A stretch of 64,000 nt of DNA, taken from positions 1,555 through 65,554 of the forward strand of contig JBPOIQ010000002.1 of assembly GCA_052034355.1 (NCBI GenBank), given 5' to 3'. The position numbers and the translations under genes are program-made. Shown in pieces: positions 503 through 48,515 of this stretch. The notes under the pieces were generated by a model. That model was given only the letters and a program-made list of their open reading frames with translations, was not told the DNA's origin and searched no databases. The DNA comes from Minisyncoccota bacterium (GTDB lineage Bacteria; Patescibacteriota; Patescibacteriia; SG8-24; DYFX01). How positions within the stretch are numbered: position 1 is the first letter of the stretch; every line of letters starts with the position of its first letter.

Positions 503-1783
503 ATGTCCTTGTTTCAAACAGCCAAACTCAAAAACGGCACGAGAGTGATTCTCGTGCCGTCGCGCGATACGCAGGCCGCCACCGTGCTGGTGCTCTTCGA
601 GGTCGGCAGCCGCTACGAGAACGGAAAACTCGCCGGCGCTTCGCATTTTGTCGAGCACATGATGTTCAAGGGTACCGAACGCCGCCCGACGACGATGGAT
701 ATCAGCCGCGACCTCGATTCCGTCGGCGCCGATTACAACGCGTTCACTGGAAAAGACCATACCGGGTATTACGTGAAGCTCAATGCTTCGCATATCGAGC
801 TGGCCGTCGACATGCTTCACGACATGCTTTTCCATTCCACGTATCGCGCCGAAGAAGTCGCGCGCGAACGCGGCGTCATCAAGGAGGAGATCAACATGTA
901 CGACGACAATCCGATCATGCGCGCCGAAGAGCTCTTGGAAGAATTGGTCTATGAAGGCACGCTCGGGCGGCCGATCGCCGGCACGCACGCCACGATGGAC
1001 GGCATCGGGAGAGATGAACTCCTTCGCTGGCGCGACCAGGCCTACGCGCCTTCCCGCATGATCGTCGCGGTCGCCGGCAAATTCGAACCGTCGGTTCTCG
1101 AGCTTCTCGAGAAGACCTTCGGTAGCGTGCAGGAGCCGAAAAAGAAGCTAAAAACTTACCCAGCCTCGCGTTTGCGGAGCGGCGGGGCTCGTCTTGCGCT
1201 ACAATATAAGGAGACCGAGCAGGTCCAGTTCGCTCTGGGCTTCCCGGGTTTGCCGTACGGGCACAAGGACGCCGCGGCGCTGTCGGTGCTGACGACGGTT
1301 TTGGGTGGAGGGATGTCGTCGCGCCTCTTTACGGAAGTGCGCGAACGGCGCGGCTTGGCGTATTCCGTGCACGCGAGCCTGAGCCCGTACCAGGACATCG
1401 GAAACTTCGCGATCCAAGCCGGCCTTATGAAGGCCAAGCTGGACGAAGGCATTACGGTGATCCTCAGGGAGCTCGGTAAGGCGGCGCAAAAGGGCGTGAC
1501 GGCGGAAGAGCTGAAGCGCGCGAAAGAATACATCAAGGGCAAGACGGTTCTCGGCCTCGAAGAATCGAGCGCGCTCGCGGAATTTTTCGCCAAGCAGGAA
1601 CTCTTGCAGAAAAAGATCCAGACGCCGGAAATGCGCTTGGAACGCATCGATAAGGTGACGCGCGAGGACGTGCTCTCTGTCGCCAAGAAGATGTTCCGCA
1701 CATCAGGACTCTCCGCCTCCTTGATCGGACCGTTCAAGGACAAGGCGCGATTCATGAAACTTCTTAAGATTCCGACGCGATAA
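503..1783 (+). CDS. M16 family zinc metallopeptidase (insulinase/PqqL-like)
   Basis: Inverted zincin motif HFVEHMMFKGTERR (HxxEH) near the N-terminus. 426 aa with the two-domain M16 layout. Start is 2 nt after the glyQS stop. Confidence 0.8.
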   Translation: MSLFQTAKLKNGTRVILVPSRDTQAATVLVLFEVGSRYENGKLAGASHFVEHMMFKGTERRPTTMDISRDLDSVGADYNAFTGKDHTGYYVKLNASHIELAVDMLHDMLFHSTYRAEEVARERGVIKEEINMYDDNPIMRAEELLEELVYEGTLGRPIAGTHATMDGIGRDELLRWRDQAYAPSRMIVAVAGKFEPSVLELLEKTFGSVQEPKKKLKTYPASRLRSGGARLALQYKETEQVQFALGFPGLPYGHKDAAALSVLTTVLGGGMSSRLFTEVRERRGLAYSVHASLSPYQDIGNFAIQAGLMKAKLDEGITVILRELGKAAQKGVTAEELKRAKEYIKGKTVLGLEESSALAEFFAKQELLQKKIQTPEMRLERIDKVTREDVLSVAKKMFRTSGLSASLIGPFKDKARFMKLLKIPTR

Positions 1784-41561: not shown

Positions 41562-42476
41562 CTATTTAAACAGCTTGTCGGCGTCGGACATGAAGGTGTC
41601 TGGTGTCGAAGTGATGAGACTTTCGCCTCTGCGTTGAGCCTCCTTGTAAAGCTCGTTCATGACGCCTATTTGCTGAAACATCGATTTACCGGCGAATTTT
41701 TCAGGAAACAGATTGAACGGCGTTAATTGATTGGTGTCCATATAGTATTGCGTCGGATCGGTTCGATCGACATACACCGGTACGGTCTTCGCTCCGAGGC
41801 GTAGGGGATTGATCGCTCCGGGCTTTGATCCAATCAGTTTTCCGTTGTAGGTGCGCGAAGCGCCGGAAAGAGGGTCGATCGCCGTGGCGCTGATATTCCA
41901 GCCCGCTCGCGATTGAAGCTCTTGGGGCATGACCGTCGTTTCCTGAATGCTCTTGATGGCGCTTACCTCCGTGATCGTTGCGTCCACGCGCGCTCCGTCG
42001 CGCAGGAAACGTTTCCTCTTCTGTACGGCGAGACGGCCTGCGAAACCGATCATCAAAAAGACAAGAAAACCGACGAAGGATCCGATCGGGGCGAGCCATA
42101 GCGCGGAGAATGAATTGATCTCGGCGCTTTCAGGTCGTTTGGGGTTGTAGAGCACGTCAACGCGCTGACCGATTTTAGGAAATTCCCCCATACTGAGACC
42201 AGACGTGAAGGTGTATGTCTTTCTGTCCGGAGTCGCGAACGTGACAATGGGCGCATAGGTCACGGAATAATGGCTCCTTGTACCACTGACGCGGCCGCGG
42301 CGCTCCTCAATGCCGGTGATCTGTCCATTCGCCTTCTCTCCGCTAACCGTATAGAAAGCACCTCCTGTAAAGACAAGGAAGCCAAAAAGAAAAAATACGG
42401 CACCGCCGAGACCGAAGATCATGGCTTGCATGTTGGGGTCGCGATTGAGCTTACTCTCCAGTGTTTTCATAGTCAC
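41562..42476 (-). CDS. DUF3592-like membrane protein
   Basis: N-terminal TM, a beta-rich middle, a second TM pair (WLAPIGSFVGFLVFLMIGFAG) and the RxxG..V.A.I pattern typical of DUF3592. GTG start. Confidence 0.5.
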   Translation of the reverse strand: MTMKTLESKLNRDPNMQAMIFGLGGAVFFLFGFLVFTGGAFYTVSGEKANGQITGIEERRGRVSGTRSHYSVTYAPIVTFATPDRKTYTFTSGLSMGEFPKIGQRVDVLYNPKRPESAEINSFSALWLAPIGSFVGFLVFLMIGFAGRLAVQKRKRFLRDGARVDATITEVSAIKSIQETTVMPQELQSRAGWNISATAIDPLSGASRTYNGKLIGSKPGAINPLRLGAKTVPVYVDRTDPTQYYMDTNQLTPFNLFPEKFAGKSMFQQIGVMNELYKEAQRRGESLITSTPDTFMSDADKLFK

Positions 42477-42600
42477 TTCAGTTTATCAAAAAAGAGGACT
42501 CGTGACGAGTCCACCGAGAAATACCGATCCTGCATCGAGGTTCCCGTTACACGAGCGAACCTCAAGCAAGTACTGCGCACTGTTGAAGGTTTGTTGCGGC

Positions 42601-42635
42601 AAAAAAATAAAACGGACTTCGCACGGGAAGTCCGT
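42601..42635 (-). terminator. minus-strand intrinsic terminator inside the 42477-42908 intergenic region
   Basis: Minus strand reads ACGGACTTCCCGTGCGAAGTCCGT followed by TTTATTTTTTT. Confidence 0.6.
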
Positions 42636-42908
42636 CAGAGACAGGCCCGAAGGCCCCTGTTCTTGGCGTCGAAGGCCTTGCGACGAGCGTCGCTGTGGCC
42701 CGGACGGAAGCGGTTCTCGACCATTGCAACGGCAGAAAGCCATTGCAGGGAGGGCACGCTTGCGTACGCCGCTCATTGGTTCGCCGTGGCCGTGCTCTTG
42801 AGGGGGAGGCAGAGCACAACACTTCGGCGTTCCATGAGAGAGAACAGTCGCCTGGCCGACACGCGGCCTTCTTTGATAGGTACGTTCTAGCAGATCGCCG
42901 CCGGGCTG

Positions 42909-43412
42909 TCAAGAGAGGCCGGCGAGGGCGATCGGCAGGGCTCGAAGATGGATCCATTCGAGCGCGAAGCCGAAGAGGAACCAGAGGCCGACGTATTCCG
43001 GCTTGATGTACCGCCAGATCCGCCAGGACGACTTGCGGTAGCGCCACGGGCATTCGCCGACGGTCTCTTCCAGGATGAAACCCCACGAGAATTCGAACAG
43101 GTAGGTGCAGAAGGCGTAGAACACGCCGCGCTGCCACCAGGCATAGCCGTAGAAGTTCGGCCACGCCTCGTCCATGATGTTGAACGCGAAGGTCGCCGAG
43201 ACGGCGTACACTGGGAAACTCCACAGGTTGGTGCAGCAGGGGAGCTTCCAGTCGACCTTCTCCTTTCGCCAGAGGCTGCGGACGACGTTGCCGATGCCGA
43301 TGAAGATGTCTTCGGCCGAGAAGGCCAGGACGGTGTAGAGAACGAGTTCGATGAGATGTGAACGCACGTGGACCTCCGCCTGCACCATTGCGGATTTTGC
43401 CTGAAATGTCAA
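42909..43412 (-). CDS. polytopic membrane protein of unknown function
   Basis: 167 aa, Trp/Phe-rich helices. No motif recognised. Confidence 0.45.
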   Translation of the reverse strand: MTFQAKSAMVQAEVHVRSHLIELVLYTVLAFSAEDIFIGIGNVVRSLWRKEKVDWKLPCCTNLWSFPVYAVSATFAFNIMDEAWPNFYGYAWWQRGVFYAFCTYLFEFSWGFILEETVGECPWRYRKSSWRIWRYIKPEYVGLWFLFGFALEWIHLRALPIALAGLS

Positions 43413-43425
43413 GCTTGGAACCCTT

Positions 43426-43465
43426 CTTGACGACTCGTTAGCACTCGTATATTCTGAGTGCTAGA
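43426..43465 (+). promoter_or_regulatory. sigma70-like promoter overlapped by a CIRCE operator (HrcA binding site)
   Basis: CTTGACG (-35-like), then TTAGCACTC-gtatattct-GAGTGCTAG, which matches the CIRCE consensus TTAGCACTC-N9-GAGTGCTAA at 17/18 positions. The TATATT -10 lies in the spacer. Confidence 0.8.
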
Positions 43466-43469
43466 AACT

Positions 43470-44159
43470 ATGGAACAGCTTGATTCTCGCCAGGAAATCC
43501 TGCTGAAACTCACCGTCCGACGCTTCATCCAAAGCGCCGAGCTGGTCGGTTCGGCGTGGCTGGCCGATGAATCCGGCCTGGACGTCTCCTCGGCGACGAT
43601 CCGAAACGAACTCGCGGCGCTCGAAGAACAAGGATTCCTGCTCCAGCCACATACGTCAGCCGGACGCGCGCCCAGCGAAAAAGGCTACCGCTATTACGTC
43701 GACCGCTTCCTCGAAAGGAAAAAGCCCGGTCCTGCCGCGATGCACGCGCTTGTCGAAGCGGTGAAAGCCGCCGAAGAGGAAGATGACAAGCTGCGCCGCG
43801 TCGCCAAGGCGCTCGCCGAACTCGCGAACGAATCGGCGCTCGCCGCCTTCGCTCCGCGCGACGTCTACTACACCGGCCTCTCCAATTTGTTCGCGAAGCC
43901 CGAGTTCAAACAACTCTCGCTCGTTGCCTCGATGTCGCGCGTGCTCGATCATCTCGACGAGACGATGGAAAAGATGTTCCCGGAAGTCGGCTCCGACGCG
44001 CGCATCCTGATCGGTTCGGAAAATCCCTTCGGCGCCGAATGCGGGCTTCTCGTCGTGCGCTCGCCGATCGGCCTGCTCGGCCTCCTTGGCCCGATGCGCA
44101 TGGACTACGACACCGATCTCGCCCTTCTTGAAACAGCCGTTGAAACGCTCAAAAACTGA
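43470..44159 (+). CDS. hrcA: heat-inducible transcription repressor HrcA
   Basis: MEQLDSRQEILLKLTVRRFIQSAELVGS...SSATIRNELAALEEQGFL...SEKGYRYYVDRFL matches the HrcA winged-helix region. The ORF-track GTG start (43458) lies inside the CIRCE right arm, so the ATG ~12 nt later is preferred. Confidence 0.85.
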   Translation: MEQLDSRQEILLKLTVRRFIQSAELVGSAWLADESGLDVSSATIRNELAALEEQGFLLQPHTSAGRAPSEKGYRYYVDRFLERKKPGPAAMHALVEAVKAAEEEDDKLRRVAKALAELANESALAAFAPRDVYYTGLSNLFAKPEFKQLSLVASMSRVLDHLDETMEKMFPEVGSDARILIGSENPFGAECGLLVVRSPIGLLGLLGPMRMDYDTDLALLETAVETLKN

Positions 44160-45958: not shown

Positions 45959-47845
45959 ATGCCTAAAATTCTCGGTATCGACCTCGGTACGACAAACTCC
46001 TGCATGGCCGTCATCGAAGGCGGTCAGCCGAAGGTGCTCGAAAACAAAGAAGGCGCGCGCACGACGCCGTCGATGCTGGCGATCTCCAAAGCGGGGGAGC
46101 GCCTCGTTGGACTTCTCGCCAAGCGCCAGGCCGTCGTCAACCCGACCAACACCATCTACTCCGTGAAACGTTTGATCGGACGCCGTTGGGAAGATCCGGA
46201 AGTGCAGCGCGACGCCAAGCTCTTCCCGTTCAAACTGACGAAGTCGGGCGAAGGCGCGAAGATCGTCATGGGCGATAAGGAATACTCGCCGCAAGAAATC
46301 TCGGCGATGATTCTTCAAAAACTCAAAGCGGACGCCGAAGAAAAAATCGGCGAGAAGATCGAGGAAGCCGTCATCACCGTGCCGGCCTACTTCGACGACG
46401 CCCAGCGCCAAGCCACGAAAGACGCGGGCGAAATCGCCGGCCTCAAAGTGCGCCGCATCATCAACGAACCGACGGCTGCCGCACTCGCCTACGGTTTCGA
46501 CAAGAAGAAAGATGAAAAGATCGTCGTCTACGACCTGGGTGGCGGCACGTTCGACGTCTCGGTACTCGAAGTTTCCGCCGACACCGTTGAAGTGAAAGCC
46601 ACGAATGGCGACACGCATCTCGGCGGCGACGACTTCGATCAGCGCCTCATCACCTGGATCGTCGAAGAATTCAAGAAAGCCGAAGGCGTCGATCTCTCCA
46701 AGGATCCGCTCGCTTTGCAGCGCATCAAGGAGGCCGCCGAAAAAGCCAAGATCGAACTCTCGACCGCGGCCACGTCCGAAATCAACCAGCCGTTCATCGC
46801 CTCCGACCCGGCCACCGGCCCCAAGCATCTCGTCATGACGCTCTCGCGCTCCAAGCTCGAAGAGCTCGTCGGCGACCTCGTCGAAAAGACGCTCGAACCG
46901 ACGAAGAAAGCCTTGGCCGACGCCAAACTTTCCGTCTCCGACATCAACGAGATCGTGATGGTTGGTGGTATGACGCGCATGCCGCTCGTCCTCGCCACCG
47001 TCGAAAAATTCTTCGGCAAGAAGCCGAACGTTTCGGTGAACCCGGACGAAGTCGTCGCGATCGGCGCGGCAGTCCAAGGTGGCGTCTTCCAAGGCGACGT
47101 CAAAGACGTCTTGCTTCTCGACGTCACTCCGCTGTCGCTCGGTCTTGAAACGATGGGTGGTGTCTCGACAAAACTGATCGAGCGCAACACCACGATCCCG
47201 ACGGCCAAAACGCAGGTCTTCTCGACCGCGGCCGACAACCAGCCGGGCGTCGAAATCCACGTCCTCCAGGGCGAGCGCGAAATGGCGGCCGACAACAAGT
47301 CACTCGGACGCTTCATGCTCGACGGCATCCCGCCGGCACCGCGCGGTGTGCCGCAAATCGAAGTCACTTTCGATATCGACGCCAACGGTATCCTGAACGT
47401 GAAGGCGAAGGATAAAGCTTCGGGCAAGGAACAGAAAATCACCATCACCGCCTCGACCGGCCTCTCCAAGGAAGAAGTCGAGCGCATGAAGAAGGACGCC
47501 GAGATTCACGCTTCGGAGGACAAAGCCAAGCGCGAGATGGCCGACCTCAAGAACAACGCCGAGACGATGGTGCACACCACCGAAAAGATGCTCAAGGACA
47601 TGGGCGAGAAGATGAAACCGGAAGACAAGAAAGCACTCGAAGAAAAACTCTCCGCGCTCAAAGCGGTAAAGGACGGCGCCGACCAGGAAGCAATCAAGAA
47701 AGCCGCGAATGAACTCACCGACCTCGCGCAAAAAATCGGTGGAGAAATGTACAAAGAAAATCCTCCAGCGGGCGAGGCTTCGAACGCCGACAAGAAAGAA
47801 GGCGACGGACCGATCGAAGGCGAAGTCGTCGATAAGAAGGAATAA
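45959..47845 (+). CDS. dnaK: molecular chaperone DnaK (Hsp70)
   Basis: [35 protein letters not shown], full-length 628 aa with EEVD-less acidic tail. Confidence 0.95.
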
Positions 47846-47855
47846 AAAAGCGCCT

Positions 47856-48515
47856 CTATCGTGTAGAGGCGCGACAGAACGCGCACTCGCCGTGATGCAC
47901 GGCGCAGGGGAGGCACCACGCGGCTGCTTCCCCGGCGGTCCAATGACCGCACCGAGCGGCGCGGGTCATGGCCGGATGCCAGCGTGAGGGCCGCGGACAG
48001 TTCGCGCATCGGGCGGGAGGCGTGTCTCTCAGTATTTGGCCGAAGACCCTGCTCCAGATCGGTCGCTTGTGGCGGTAGTGGTAGATCTGGTGCGGCTGCA
48101 TGGAGTCGACGAGATCGAGCGGAATCGCCGCGATCTTCTCGGCCACGGCAGCCTCCGCCGGCGAGAAGCCGTCCTTGCTCGAGGCGAGCTTCTCGCGCAT
48201 GAGCTGCGCGGCCGACGTGATGCCGTAGGATTTCACCAGAGTCACGAAGGCGTCAAAGAGCGTCTCGAAGACGTCTTGGCGCTCCAGTTCCGTCTCCGAG
48301 AGCGTTGAAGCTCCGCAGGCCTGACATTCATTCTTGGACGCGGCGCATCTCTCGCACATCGAGTGCGTGTAGTAGACCAATTCGACGCGCGCGCCTCCGA
48401 TATGCGTGCAATACGGACAGTACACTCGCGGCGATCCGTCGCCCGGCGGTCGCGTCTTGTACTGCGCGATGCGCGCGTCCCAGTCGACCGACTTGCATGG
48501 GTTGCAGAGATGCAT
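47856..48515 (-). CDS. Cys-rich hypothetical protein (four CxxC pairs; zinc-ribbon-like) encoded antisense between dnaK and dnaJ
   Basis: N-terminal CNPC...CPYC...CERC...CQAC. The C-terminal third looks low-complexity, so the true 3' end may be shorter. Could still be a GC-driven artefact. Confidence 0.4.
   Translation of the reverse strand: MHLCNPCKSVDWDARIAQYKTRPPGDGSPRVYCPYCTHIGGARVELVYYTHSMCERCAASKNECQACGASTLSETELERQDVFETLFDAFVTLVKSYGITSAAQLMREKLASSKDGFSPAEAAVAEKIAAIPLDLVDSMQPHQIYHYRHKRPIWSRVFGQILRDTPPARCANCPRPSRWHPAMTRAARCGHWTAGEAAAWCLPCAVHHGECAFCRASTR

Follow-up and report, generated by a model that had tools for sequence, protein, structure and literature searches.

The window analysed here is a stretch of 64,000 nucleotides from a Minisyncoccota bacterium, a member of the Patescibacteria, and the element in question lies in a gap (42477-42908) flanked by two minus-strand genes, 42909-43412 upstream and a DUF3592 gene downstream. 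The minus strand of this gap, from about 42877 to 42601, carries a predicted independent, structured non-coding RNA gene of approximately 277 nt, here called RNA-1, which has a putative promoter and an intrinsic terminator of its own, both kept across lineages, and whose predicted fold is maintained by compensatory substitution, as judged from comparison of homologous sequences. RNA-1 is a new family within the lineage-restricted orphan structured non-coding RNAs, and no description of it was found in the searchable literature on the non-coding RNAs of Patescibacteria/Parcubacteria. The genomes of Patescibacteria (candidate phyla radiation) are tiny and contain very little non-coding DNA, and, to our knowledge, their regulatory and structural RNAs, apart from the universal ones, are almost unexplored. 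The retention, and sometimes duplication, of an intricate covarying RNA in such genomes suggests that it likely does something that matters to the cell.

The first-pass annotation of the window had flagged this gap as a candidate non-coding RNA. The gap itself is real, extending from the stop codon of 42909-43412 to the start of the DUF3592 gene, and it is structured as described: the whole gap folds better than shuffled sequence on both strands (z = -4.1 for the minus and -2.6 for the plus strand), and the minimum free energy (MFE) z-score of RNA-1 proper is -4.2. The same annotation called the gap GC-rich, which is not the case relative to its surroundings, as its GC content is 0.51-0.61 compared to 0.48-0.66 in the nearby flanks.

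Transcription unit and distribution

A sigma-70-type promoter can be read from the sequence directly before RNA-1 (42884-42912, minus strand). It is composed of a -35 element TTGACA (42912-42907), which shares bases with the TGA stop codon (42911-42909) that ends the upstream gene, a 17-nt spacer with a TG at 42892-42891 that creates an extended -10, and a -10 element TAGAAC (42889-42884). The 5' end of RNA-1 was placed 7 nt after the -10 element, as inferred from this promoter. The arrangement TTGACA-17-TAGAAC after a membrane-protein gene is shared by the window clade and the relatives L001, L012 and L014 (L numbers denote related contigs and lineages throughout). L016 has TTGACA-17-TAGAAA, 35 nt beyond a stop codon; L018 has TTGACG-18-TAGGTT, overlapping the stop of a 153-aa DUF3592 gene; L022 has TTGACG-17-TAGGAA, without an upstream gene and divergent from hrcA; and L043 has TTGACA-17-TATAAA, likewise without an upstream gene. 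The consensus TTGACR, 17-18 nt, (TGn)TAKnnn is present in 8/8 distinct sequence variants despite their diverging flanks, and the TG stands one base ahead of the -10 in all of the promoters listed. The promoter scan misses these sites because it demands a T at position 6 of the -10. The overlap of the -35 TTGACR with an upstream TGA stop was observed in two lineages with different upstream genes, at 42907-42912 in the window and at 7452-7457 in L018 (minus strand in both).

The minus-strand intrinsic terminator that the first-pass annotation had noted was recovered by the terminator scan at 42601-42635, approximately 270 nt beyond the upstream stop codon. Its 10-pair stem (42636-42611) is formed by ACGGACUUC and GAAGUCCGU around the loop CCGUGC and is followed by the tract UUUAUUUUUUU; TTATTTTTTT runs down to 42601, and the 3' end of RNA-1 is predicted to lie within this U-tract. 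The stem is 94% paired with five covarying pairs, and its loop differs even between near-identical population variants. Homologues of RNA-1 are 230-398 nt long, and about 555 nt in L043.

Relatives of RNA-1 comprise seven further distinct sequence variants from Patescibacteria, one of which is only partly assembled. When GTDB species genomes were scanned with the flanking protein, one relative came up, L001, a contig of a Patescibacteria metagenome-assembled genome (JBAZZB010000001.1) with 87% amino acid identity. Protein look-ups identified ten contigs from different samples (L002-L011) that encode an identical flanking protein, among which L003 has a divergent gap, together with three lineages at a greater distance (L012/13, L014/15 and L016, the last of these partial), while HrcA-guided look-ups added L018, L022 and L043, in which HrcA is 72-77% identical. 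A covariance model (CM) built on the 3' core, R1, scores 192 bits at the window RNA-1 and 99-190 bits in six other lineages. RNA-1 was not found near hrcA in L024/L025, L026/L027, L028 and L029 (63-74% HrcA identity), even with a further model, R2, and with filters off. A metagenome scan with the invariant core string TTCGACGCCAAGAACNGGGGCC returned a single match, L017, which lies inside a coding region and was dismissed as chance; the RNA-bearing JGI contigs L002 and L004 were not returned by it and appear to lie outside that collection. Similarly, viral contigs scanned with a gapped core pattern yielded 13 matches, and the CM confirmed none of them.

Every lineage that carries the RNA has it within approximately 0-600 nt of the hrcA-grpE-(hsp20)-dnaK genes, on their upstream side and in divergent orientation, and this adjacency holds with or without an intervening gene for a small membrane protein. 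The only CIRCE (controlling inverted repeat of chaperone expression) operator in the 64-kb window, TTAGCACTC-N9-GAGTGCTAG with one mismatch (43438-43464, plus strand), overlaps the hrcA -10, and CIRCE also precedes hrcA in L022 and L043. Control of the RNA promoter by HrcA was considered and rejected, given that the window CIRCE is one whole gene away, and that those of L022 and L043 lie 22-46 bp from the RNA -35 without overlapping it. As CIRCE overlaps the RNA promoter in no lineage, the link to heat shock is positional only.

Fold, covariation and a tandem paralogue

The common fold of RNA-1 comprises the helices P1 to P8, which are organized into two stacked three-way junctions and display a C-rich apical loop (all coordinates below refer to the minus strand). 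RNAalifold, analysis by hand and single-sequence MFE folds agree on this fold, and the MFE structures of the window and L022 give the same architecture independently. The RNA starts with a variable 5' extension that is missing in the window. The hairpin loop of this extension reads AGGAGGUG in L012 (1535-1570) and L016 (770-798) and ACGAGGUG in L001 (4590-4625), and it is followed after 7-8 nt by an AUG, a layout that resembles a Shine-Dalgarno arrangement without a conserved frame (Met-Asn-His-stop in L001).

The P1 hairpin, GGCCG-CGUGU-CGGCC (42854-42868), covaries as GGUCA/UGACC, GGUCU/AGACC and GGUUC/GAACC; being palindromic, it also accounts for the plus-strand 'terminator-like' site of the scan. 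It is followed by the unpaired joiner J1/2, AGGCGA (42848-42853), which is present in 7/7 complete RNA-1 variants and in 2/3 full-length copies of the paralogue RNA-2 described below. The L043 joiner reads UGGCGA. The next base, C or U, starts P2; in the L012 paralogue AGGCGA is followed by a G, which leaves position 1 of P2 unpaired. The 5' strand of P2, CUGUUCU (42841-42847), pairs over a long range with 42657-42663 to form 6-7 bp that close a three-way junction with P3 and P4, and this helix was recovered in single-sequence MFE folds. Its two strands read CUGUUCU/AGAACAG in the window, CUAUCCC/GGGAUAG in L022, UCAUCCC/GGGAUGG in L018, CCGUCCC/GGGGCGG in L043 and CGAUCC/GGAUCG in RNA-2.

The P3 domain (42772-42838) contains the closing helix CUCAU(GG)/(CC-A)AUGAG, which covaries in every lineage, P3a (GCCG/CGGC) and the P3b hairpin, GUGCUCU/AGAGCAC (42817-42792), with its C-rich loop GCCUCCCCCUCA (42810-42799). 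An apical loop with 4-6 consecutive C, or with two C triplets in the case of L018, is found in all members of RNA-1, and is replaced by a UUCG hairpin in RNA-2. The 5' strand of P4, GGCGU (42766-42770), pairs with ACGCC (42665-42669); four of its five pairs are compensatory (GGCGC/GCGCC, GUGC/GCAC, GACAC/GUGUC) with 98% of alignment cells paired, and it leads into the second three-way junction, which is shared with P5-P6 and P7.

The P5-P6 arm (42704-42765) displays a conserved GAGAAC at the P6/P5 junction. P5 is formed by ACG-C-AAGCG-U-G (42765-42755) and C-CGCUU-C-CGU (42713-42704) with 9/9 compensatory pairs, and P6 by CUCCC (42752-42748) and GG-UC-GAG (42722-42716), capped by a short loop or an extra hairpin. 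This optional extension hairpin (42747-42723) is missing in L014, L022 and L018, in which P6 is closed by a short loop instead. The joiner J5/7, CC (42703-42702), is invariant in 11/11 aligned sequences, and the P7 arm, which together with J5/7 spans 42673-42703, is built from GGGCC (42701-42697) and GGCCU (42677-42673), 92% paired, together with the inner hairpin GCGAC-GCUC-GUCGC (42693-42680), which is 100% paired with three covarying pairs and retains its stem while its loop varies. The stretch 42657-42672 then contains the joiner J7/4, UCG (42672-42670), which is also invariant in 11/11 aligned sequences, paralogues included, the 3' strand of P4 (42669-42665), a one-base linker A and the 3' strand of P2, AGAACAG (42663-42657). 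P8, the hairpin GGGCC-UUCG-GGCCU (42643-42656), is paired in all lettered cells with two covarying pairs, and is missing from L022 and RNA-2. Three additional pairings were examined by eye, namely GGCG of J1/2 with the 3' strand of P4, a pseudoknot between the C-rich loop and the G-run after P2, and an antiterminator in which GUCCG of the core pairs with the terminator, and none of them is conserved across lineages.

Statistical support comes from two alignments. In the MAFFT alignment A4 of the 3' core from seven sequences, 94.9% of pairs are formed and 10 pairs have changed on both sides, compared to 3.2 in shuffled controls (0/500 reach the observed value) and 1-4 in slid controls. In the CM-guided alignment of 11 sequences, 95.4% are formed and 28/50 pairs are compensatory, compared to 10.7 in shuffles (0/500) and 3-9 in slid controls, although this alignment was fitted to the model, which biases the pair counts towards structure and leaves them somewhat inflated. 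Hand-checked P1, P2 and P3 are 100%, 91% and 98% paired, and these values fall to 83%, 74% and 49% upon swapping the 3' strands among sequences (0/2000). In addition, P5 of L014 has jointly lost AA on one strand and UU on the other. The first-pass annotation had held that the absence of both an Rfam match and covariation at homologous loci would speak against its candidate; there is no Rfam match, compensatory change is strong, and the candidate survives.

Sequence turnover also speaks for selection on the RNA. Among close relatives, in which HrcA is 93-96% and hrcA DNA about 88% identical, the 3' 170 nt of RNA-1 retain 85-88% nucleotide identity, close to the value for hrcA (77% for the 3' core of L014, which carries the deletions), while the flanking membrane protein falls to 45-50% amino acid identity and the remaining gap is rich in indels. 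Single-nucleotide differences among the population variants of the window lineage (L005, L009, L003) are mainly located in hairpin loops. Furthermore, many minus-strand helix positions switch between G·U and G-C or A-U pairs; read on the plus strand, the G·U pairs would become A·C mismatches. Such alternations fit the minus strand only, which identifies it as the RNA strand.

A diverged tandem paralogue, RNA-2, is found directly after the terminator of RNA-1. It is present in full length (approximately 230-330 nt) in L001 (4934-5263), L012 (1887-2124) and L014 (3923-4249), where it has -35 and -10 elements of its own and scores 22-25 bits with R1 (E 6e-5 to 5e-4). Its elements are arranged as in RNA-1, with P1, AGGCGAC, P2 (CGAUCC/GGAUCG), P3 reduced to the UUCG hairpin, P4 (GCAC/GUGC), P5, P6 (CUCC/GGGAG), the joiner CC, P7, the joiner UCG and finally a terminator. 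Nested deletions have shortened the copies of the window and L003; what is left in the window, within 42488-42600, is a remnant of the final ~90 nt that consists of the 3' strand of P7, UCG, the 3' strands of P4 and P2 (GGAUCG) and the terminator. The second hairpin with a U-run that the terminator scan detected at 42512-42496 belongs to this remnant, and is thus the terminator of the decayed paralogue rather than an attenuator of the DUF3592 gene.

Function and competing explanations

On balance we lean towards a stand-alone minus-strand non-coding RNA gene whose product acts in trans through its folded core. Conservation is concentrated in the junction nucleotides and the helix geometry, while the 5' extension, the interior of P3, the extensions of P6 and P7, and P8 come and go, and RNA-2 has kept AGGCGA, CC and UCG at the junctions although its loops differ; it is from this pattern that action in trans is deduced. 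It is what one would typically expect of an RNA that binds a protein or a ligand, rather than of an antisense regulator of the seed type. RNA-1 would most likely serve as a protein partner or as part of a ribonucleoprotein, with the C-rich loop of P3b as a likely contact site, and would be neither a leader of a neighbouring gene nor a simple antisense regulator. The protein-binding or ribonucleoprotein role is itself a tentative proposal, and a role as a ribozyme or as a ligand or temperature sensor is improbable. It is similarly doubtful that RNA-1 represents a new class of complex-folded RNA, confined to one Patescibacteria clade, whose core would catalyse a reaction, sense a ligand or temperature, or scaffold a protein complex that feeds into HrcA/DnaK proteostasis.

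Several points weigh against a trans-acting RNA gene of this kind. No partner protein was identified, the locus has no linked gene for an RNA-binding protein, base-pairing small RNAs (sRNAs) use features such as the conserved C-rich loop, and the 5' end of RNA-1 is placed solely by inference from the promoter. The sample is narrow, with eight distinct variants from one Patescibacteria group with at least 72% HrcA identity, five of which are close relatives, and the inflated pair counts of the larger alignment belong here as well. Moreover, the distribution is patchy, as the RNA is absent near hrcA in L024, L026 and L029, and the paralogue has decayed; both observations argue against an essential housekeeping role, and an accessory regulator would also fit them.

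RNA-1 resembles the orphan RNAs OLE, raiA, ROOL/GOLLD, Chloroflexi-1 and Acido-1 in being a predicted stand-alone gene with its own promoter and terminator and a covarying multi-helix fold, and it shares with them the conserved junction nucleotides, the variable peripheral helices and the narrow range. Like OLE, it often adjoins genes for small membrane proteins. However, it is smaller than OLE, ROOL and GOLLD, it occurs with a tandem paralogue, and it matches none of these orphans in sequence or structure, every Rfam 15 family having been searched. We know of no earlier RNA of this type that is tied to the hrcA locus of Patescibacteria. Its anatomy, together with the models R1 and R2, makes the family searchable across genomes of the phylum and metatranscriptomes.

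Among the alternatives, a base-pairing sRNA is the least unlikely, although it remains doubtful. The C-rich loop of P3b (CCUCCCCCUC) would pair with G-rich Shine-Dalgarno or start regions and block translation, the rest of the fold providing stability, in the manner of the RsaE/RoxS-type sRNAs, whose C-rich loops pair with G-rich Shine-Dalgarno regions to block translation. RNA-1 shares with these the C-run in an apical hairpin loop, the Rho-independent terminator and the predicted independent transcription; the C-run is kept in every member despite differences in the hairpin that carries it, and the patchy range and dispensable paralogue would suit an accessory regulator with its own promoter and terminator. 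However, RsaE/RoxS sRNAs are about 100 nt long, contain several C-rich motifs and fold into two or three simple hairpins, whereas RNA-1 measures 230 to ~555 nt, has two multi-helix three-way junctions with invariant joining nucleotides and a single C-rich loop, and matches no Rfam family, which makes it far more elaborate than known seed-type sRNAs. The loop has no fixed seed either, as CCUCC is found only in the window and L022, and in at least two neighbouring genes the leader is apparently very short or missing and no Shine-Dalgarno is obvious. The least probable explanation of all is a divergent universal RNA (SRP, RNase P, 6S or tmRNA) that Rfam models miss in Patescibacteria, which are known for unusual RNAs. 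In its favour are the short similarities GGACGGAAGCGG (plus strand) and GUCCGGGCC (minus strand), and the rest of the 64-kb window yielded none of these RNAs, whose presence there would have excluded them as candidates. At the gathering score, however, Rfam 15 detects only six tRNAs in the whole window; the SRP, RNase P, tmRNA and 6S models that the first-pass annotation had suggested running give no match at E <= 10 on either strand of 42350-43050, the relatives yield only tRNAs and noise (L001 gap at E <= 10; L018, L022 and L043 at E <= 0.5), and ARAGORN finds no tmRNA in L001, L003, L012 and L014. The 5' and 3' ends of RNA-1 are unpaired, unlike those of SRP RNA, 6S RNA, RNase P RNA and tmRNA, and duplication, a decayed paralogue and absence beside hrcA in related genomes are unexpected for an essential single-copy RNA.

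Each universal RNA was also rejected on its own terms. The string GTGGCCCGGACGGAAGCGG, which the first-pass annotation had read as SRP-like, is indeed present at 42695-42713 on the plus strand, and GGCCCGGACGGAAGCGG loosely resembles the tip of SRP RNA domain IV (4.5S/Bacillus type); but this string is the complement of the 3' strand of P5, the CC joiner and the 5' strand of P7, and with the minus strand as the RNA strand the motif is lost. The corresponding minus-strand bases form no hairpin tip, neither the GNRA terminal hairpin of domain IV with its flanking internal loops nor a helix closing the 5' and 3' ends is present, and RF00169 and RF01854 do not match. The same annotation had considered RNase P unlikely, which agrees with our findings: RF00010 and RF00011 do not match, and GUCCGGGCC is J5/7 plus the 5' strand of P7, which pairs locally with GGCCU, the 3' strand of an RNase P P4 being absent. 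The 3' end of RNA-1 is a terminator hairpin rather than the CCA acceptor of a tmRNA (RF00023, no match in the window), and no tag reading frame is present; in place of the long irregular hairpin with a large central bubble that marks a 6S RNA (RF00013, no match), the supported fold has two three-way junctions.

The two remaining explanations place the structure in the transcript of a neighbouring gene. A cis-regulatory leader, in which one or two riboswitch-like aptamers closed by P2 and followed by a terminator would control the DUF3592 gene, is very unlikely. The layout does recall terminating riboswitches, with a junction-rich domain closed by one helix and a terminator within ~20 nt, and two related elements, each with a terminator, stand in series before the DUF3592 gene in the window, L001, L003 and L012, like tandem riboswitches. 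However, a convergent gene comes next after the RNA in L014, L018 and L022, and in L018 the DUF3592 gene (153 aa) lies upstream of the RNA; an RNA that is followed by no gene of its own strand in three lineages is most probably neither a leader nor a riboswitch. In addition, RNA-2 has its own -35/-10 (L001, L012, L014), the DUF3592 gene has a conserved TGnTAAACT element of its own, no conserved antiterminator pairing was found by eye, and no Rfam riboswitch model or known aptamer matches RNA-1 in the window, L001, L018, L022 or L043. The first-pass annotation had left the choice between a long 3' untranslated region (UTR) and an independent sRNA; the second part of this choice stood, as a non-coding RNA gene with a conserved promoter of its own and with upstream genes that differ or are absent, while a 3' UTR alone, in which hairpins would merely stabilise the mRNA of the membrane-protein gene, is highly improbable. 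The RNA lies on the same strand as the upstream gene, no terminator occurs between the stop codon and 42636, and read-through from this gene is likely also to occur. Nevertheless, all lineages have a near-consensus promoter directly before the RNA, which in L016 is found 35 nt beyond the stop codon; L022 and L043 have no upstream gene on the RNA strand, the RNA being divergent from hrcA; and in L018 the upstream gene belongs to a different family.

A protein-coding reading of the gap was also rejected, as frame-breaking indels of 1 nt occur in the core among close relatives and the gap open reading frames (ORFs) that were tested have no Pfam match. In L018 and L022 stop codons are present in all three frames of the RNA strand, and a six-frame comparison gave no coherent peptide. 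Public gene calls place ORFs of 194-242 aa without a Pfam match over the RNA genes of L003 (2379-2966), L014 (3503-4231) and L043 (753-1337), the first two antisense to the RNA and the one in L043 on the same strand as the RNA. Such calls probably arise spuriously from GC-rich non-coding sequence, and they can now be corrected.

Neighbouring genes and minor observations

The gene upstream of RNA-1 (42909-43412, minus strand) encodes a membrane protein of 159-167 aa (167 aa in the window) with a weak match to PF06541. The downstream DUF3592 gene, also on the minus strand, starts with an ATG at 42470, the mechanical ORF start being a GTG at 42476. Its own conserved element TGnTAAACT (TGATAAACT, an extended -10; region 42470-42488, minus strand) ends 9 nt before the ATG, and the hrcA promoter, TTGACG-17-TATTCT (region 43427-43470, plus strand), ends 14 nt before the hrcA ATG at 43470. 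The leaders of both genes seem to be very short or absent, and an obvious Shine-Dalgarno was seen in neither. L043, the most divergent member of the family, has approximately 330 nt of extra 5' sequence between promoter and core (1425-1752, minus strand), which contains two GGUCAGCG repeats.

A further CM match in the window (47840-47969, minus strand; 19 bits) and its syntenic twin in L026 (9883-9982) were judged to be false positives. These matches, of 19-21 bits, are located at the 3' end and terminator of a Cys-rich ORF of 219 aa (tblastn 28-33% identity over 176-242 aa). This conserved ORF lies at 47856-48515 on the minus strand, antisense between dnaK and dnaJ, and it has counterparts in L026 (9905-10546), L018 (12667-13311) and L028 (5095-5565), with 28-33% identity among the lineages.

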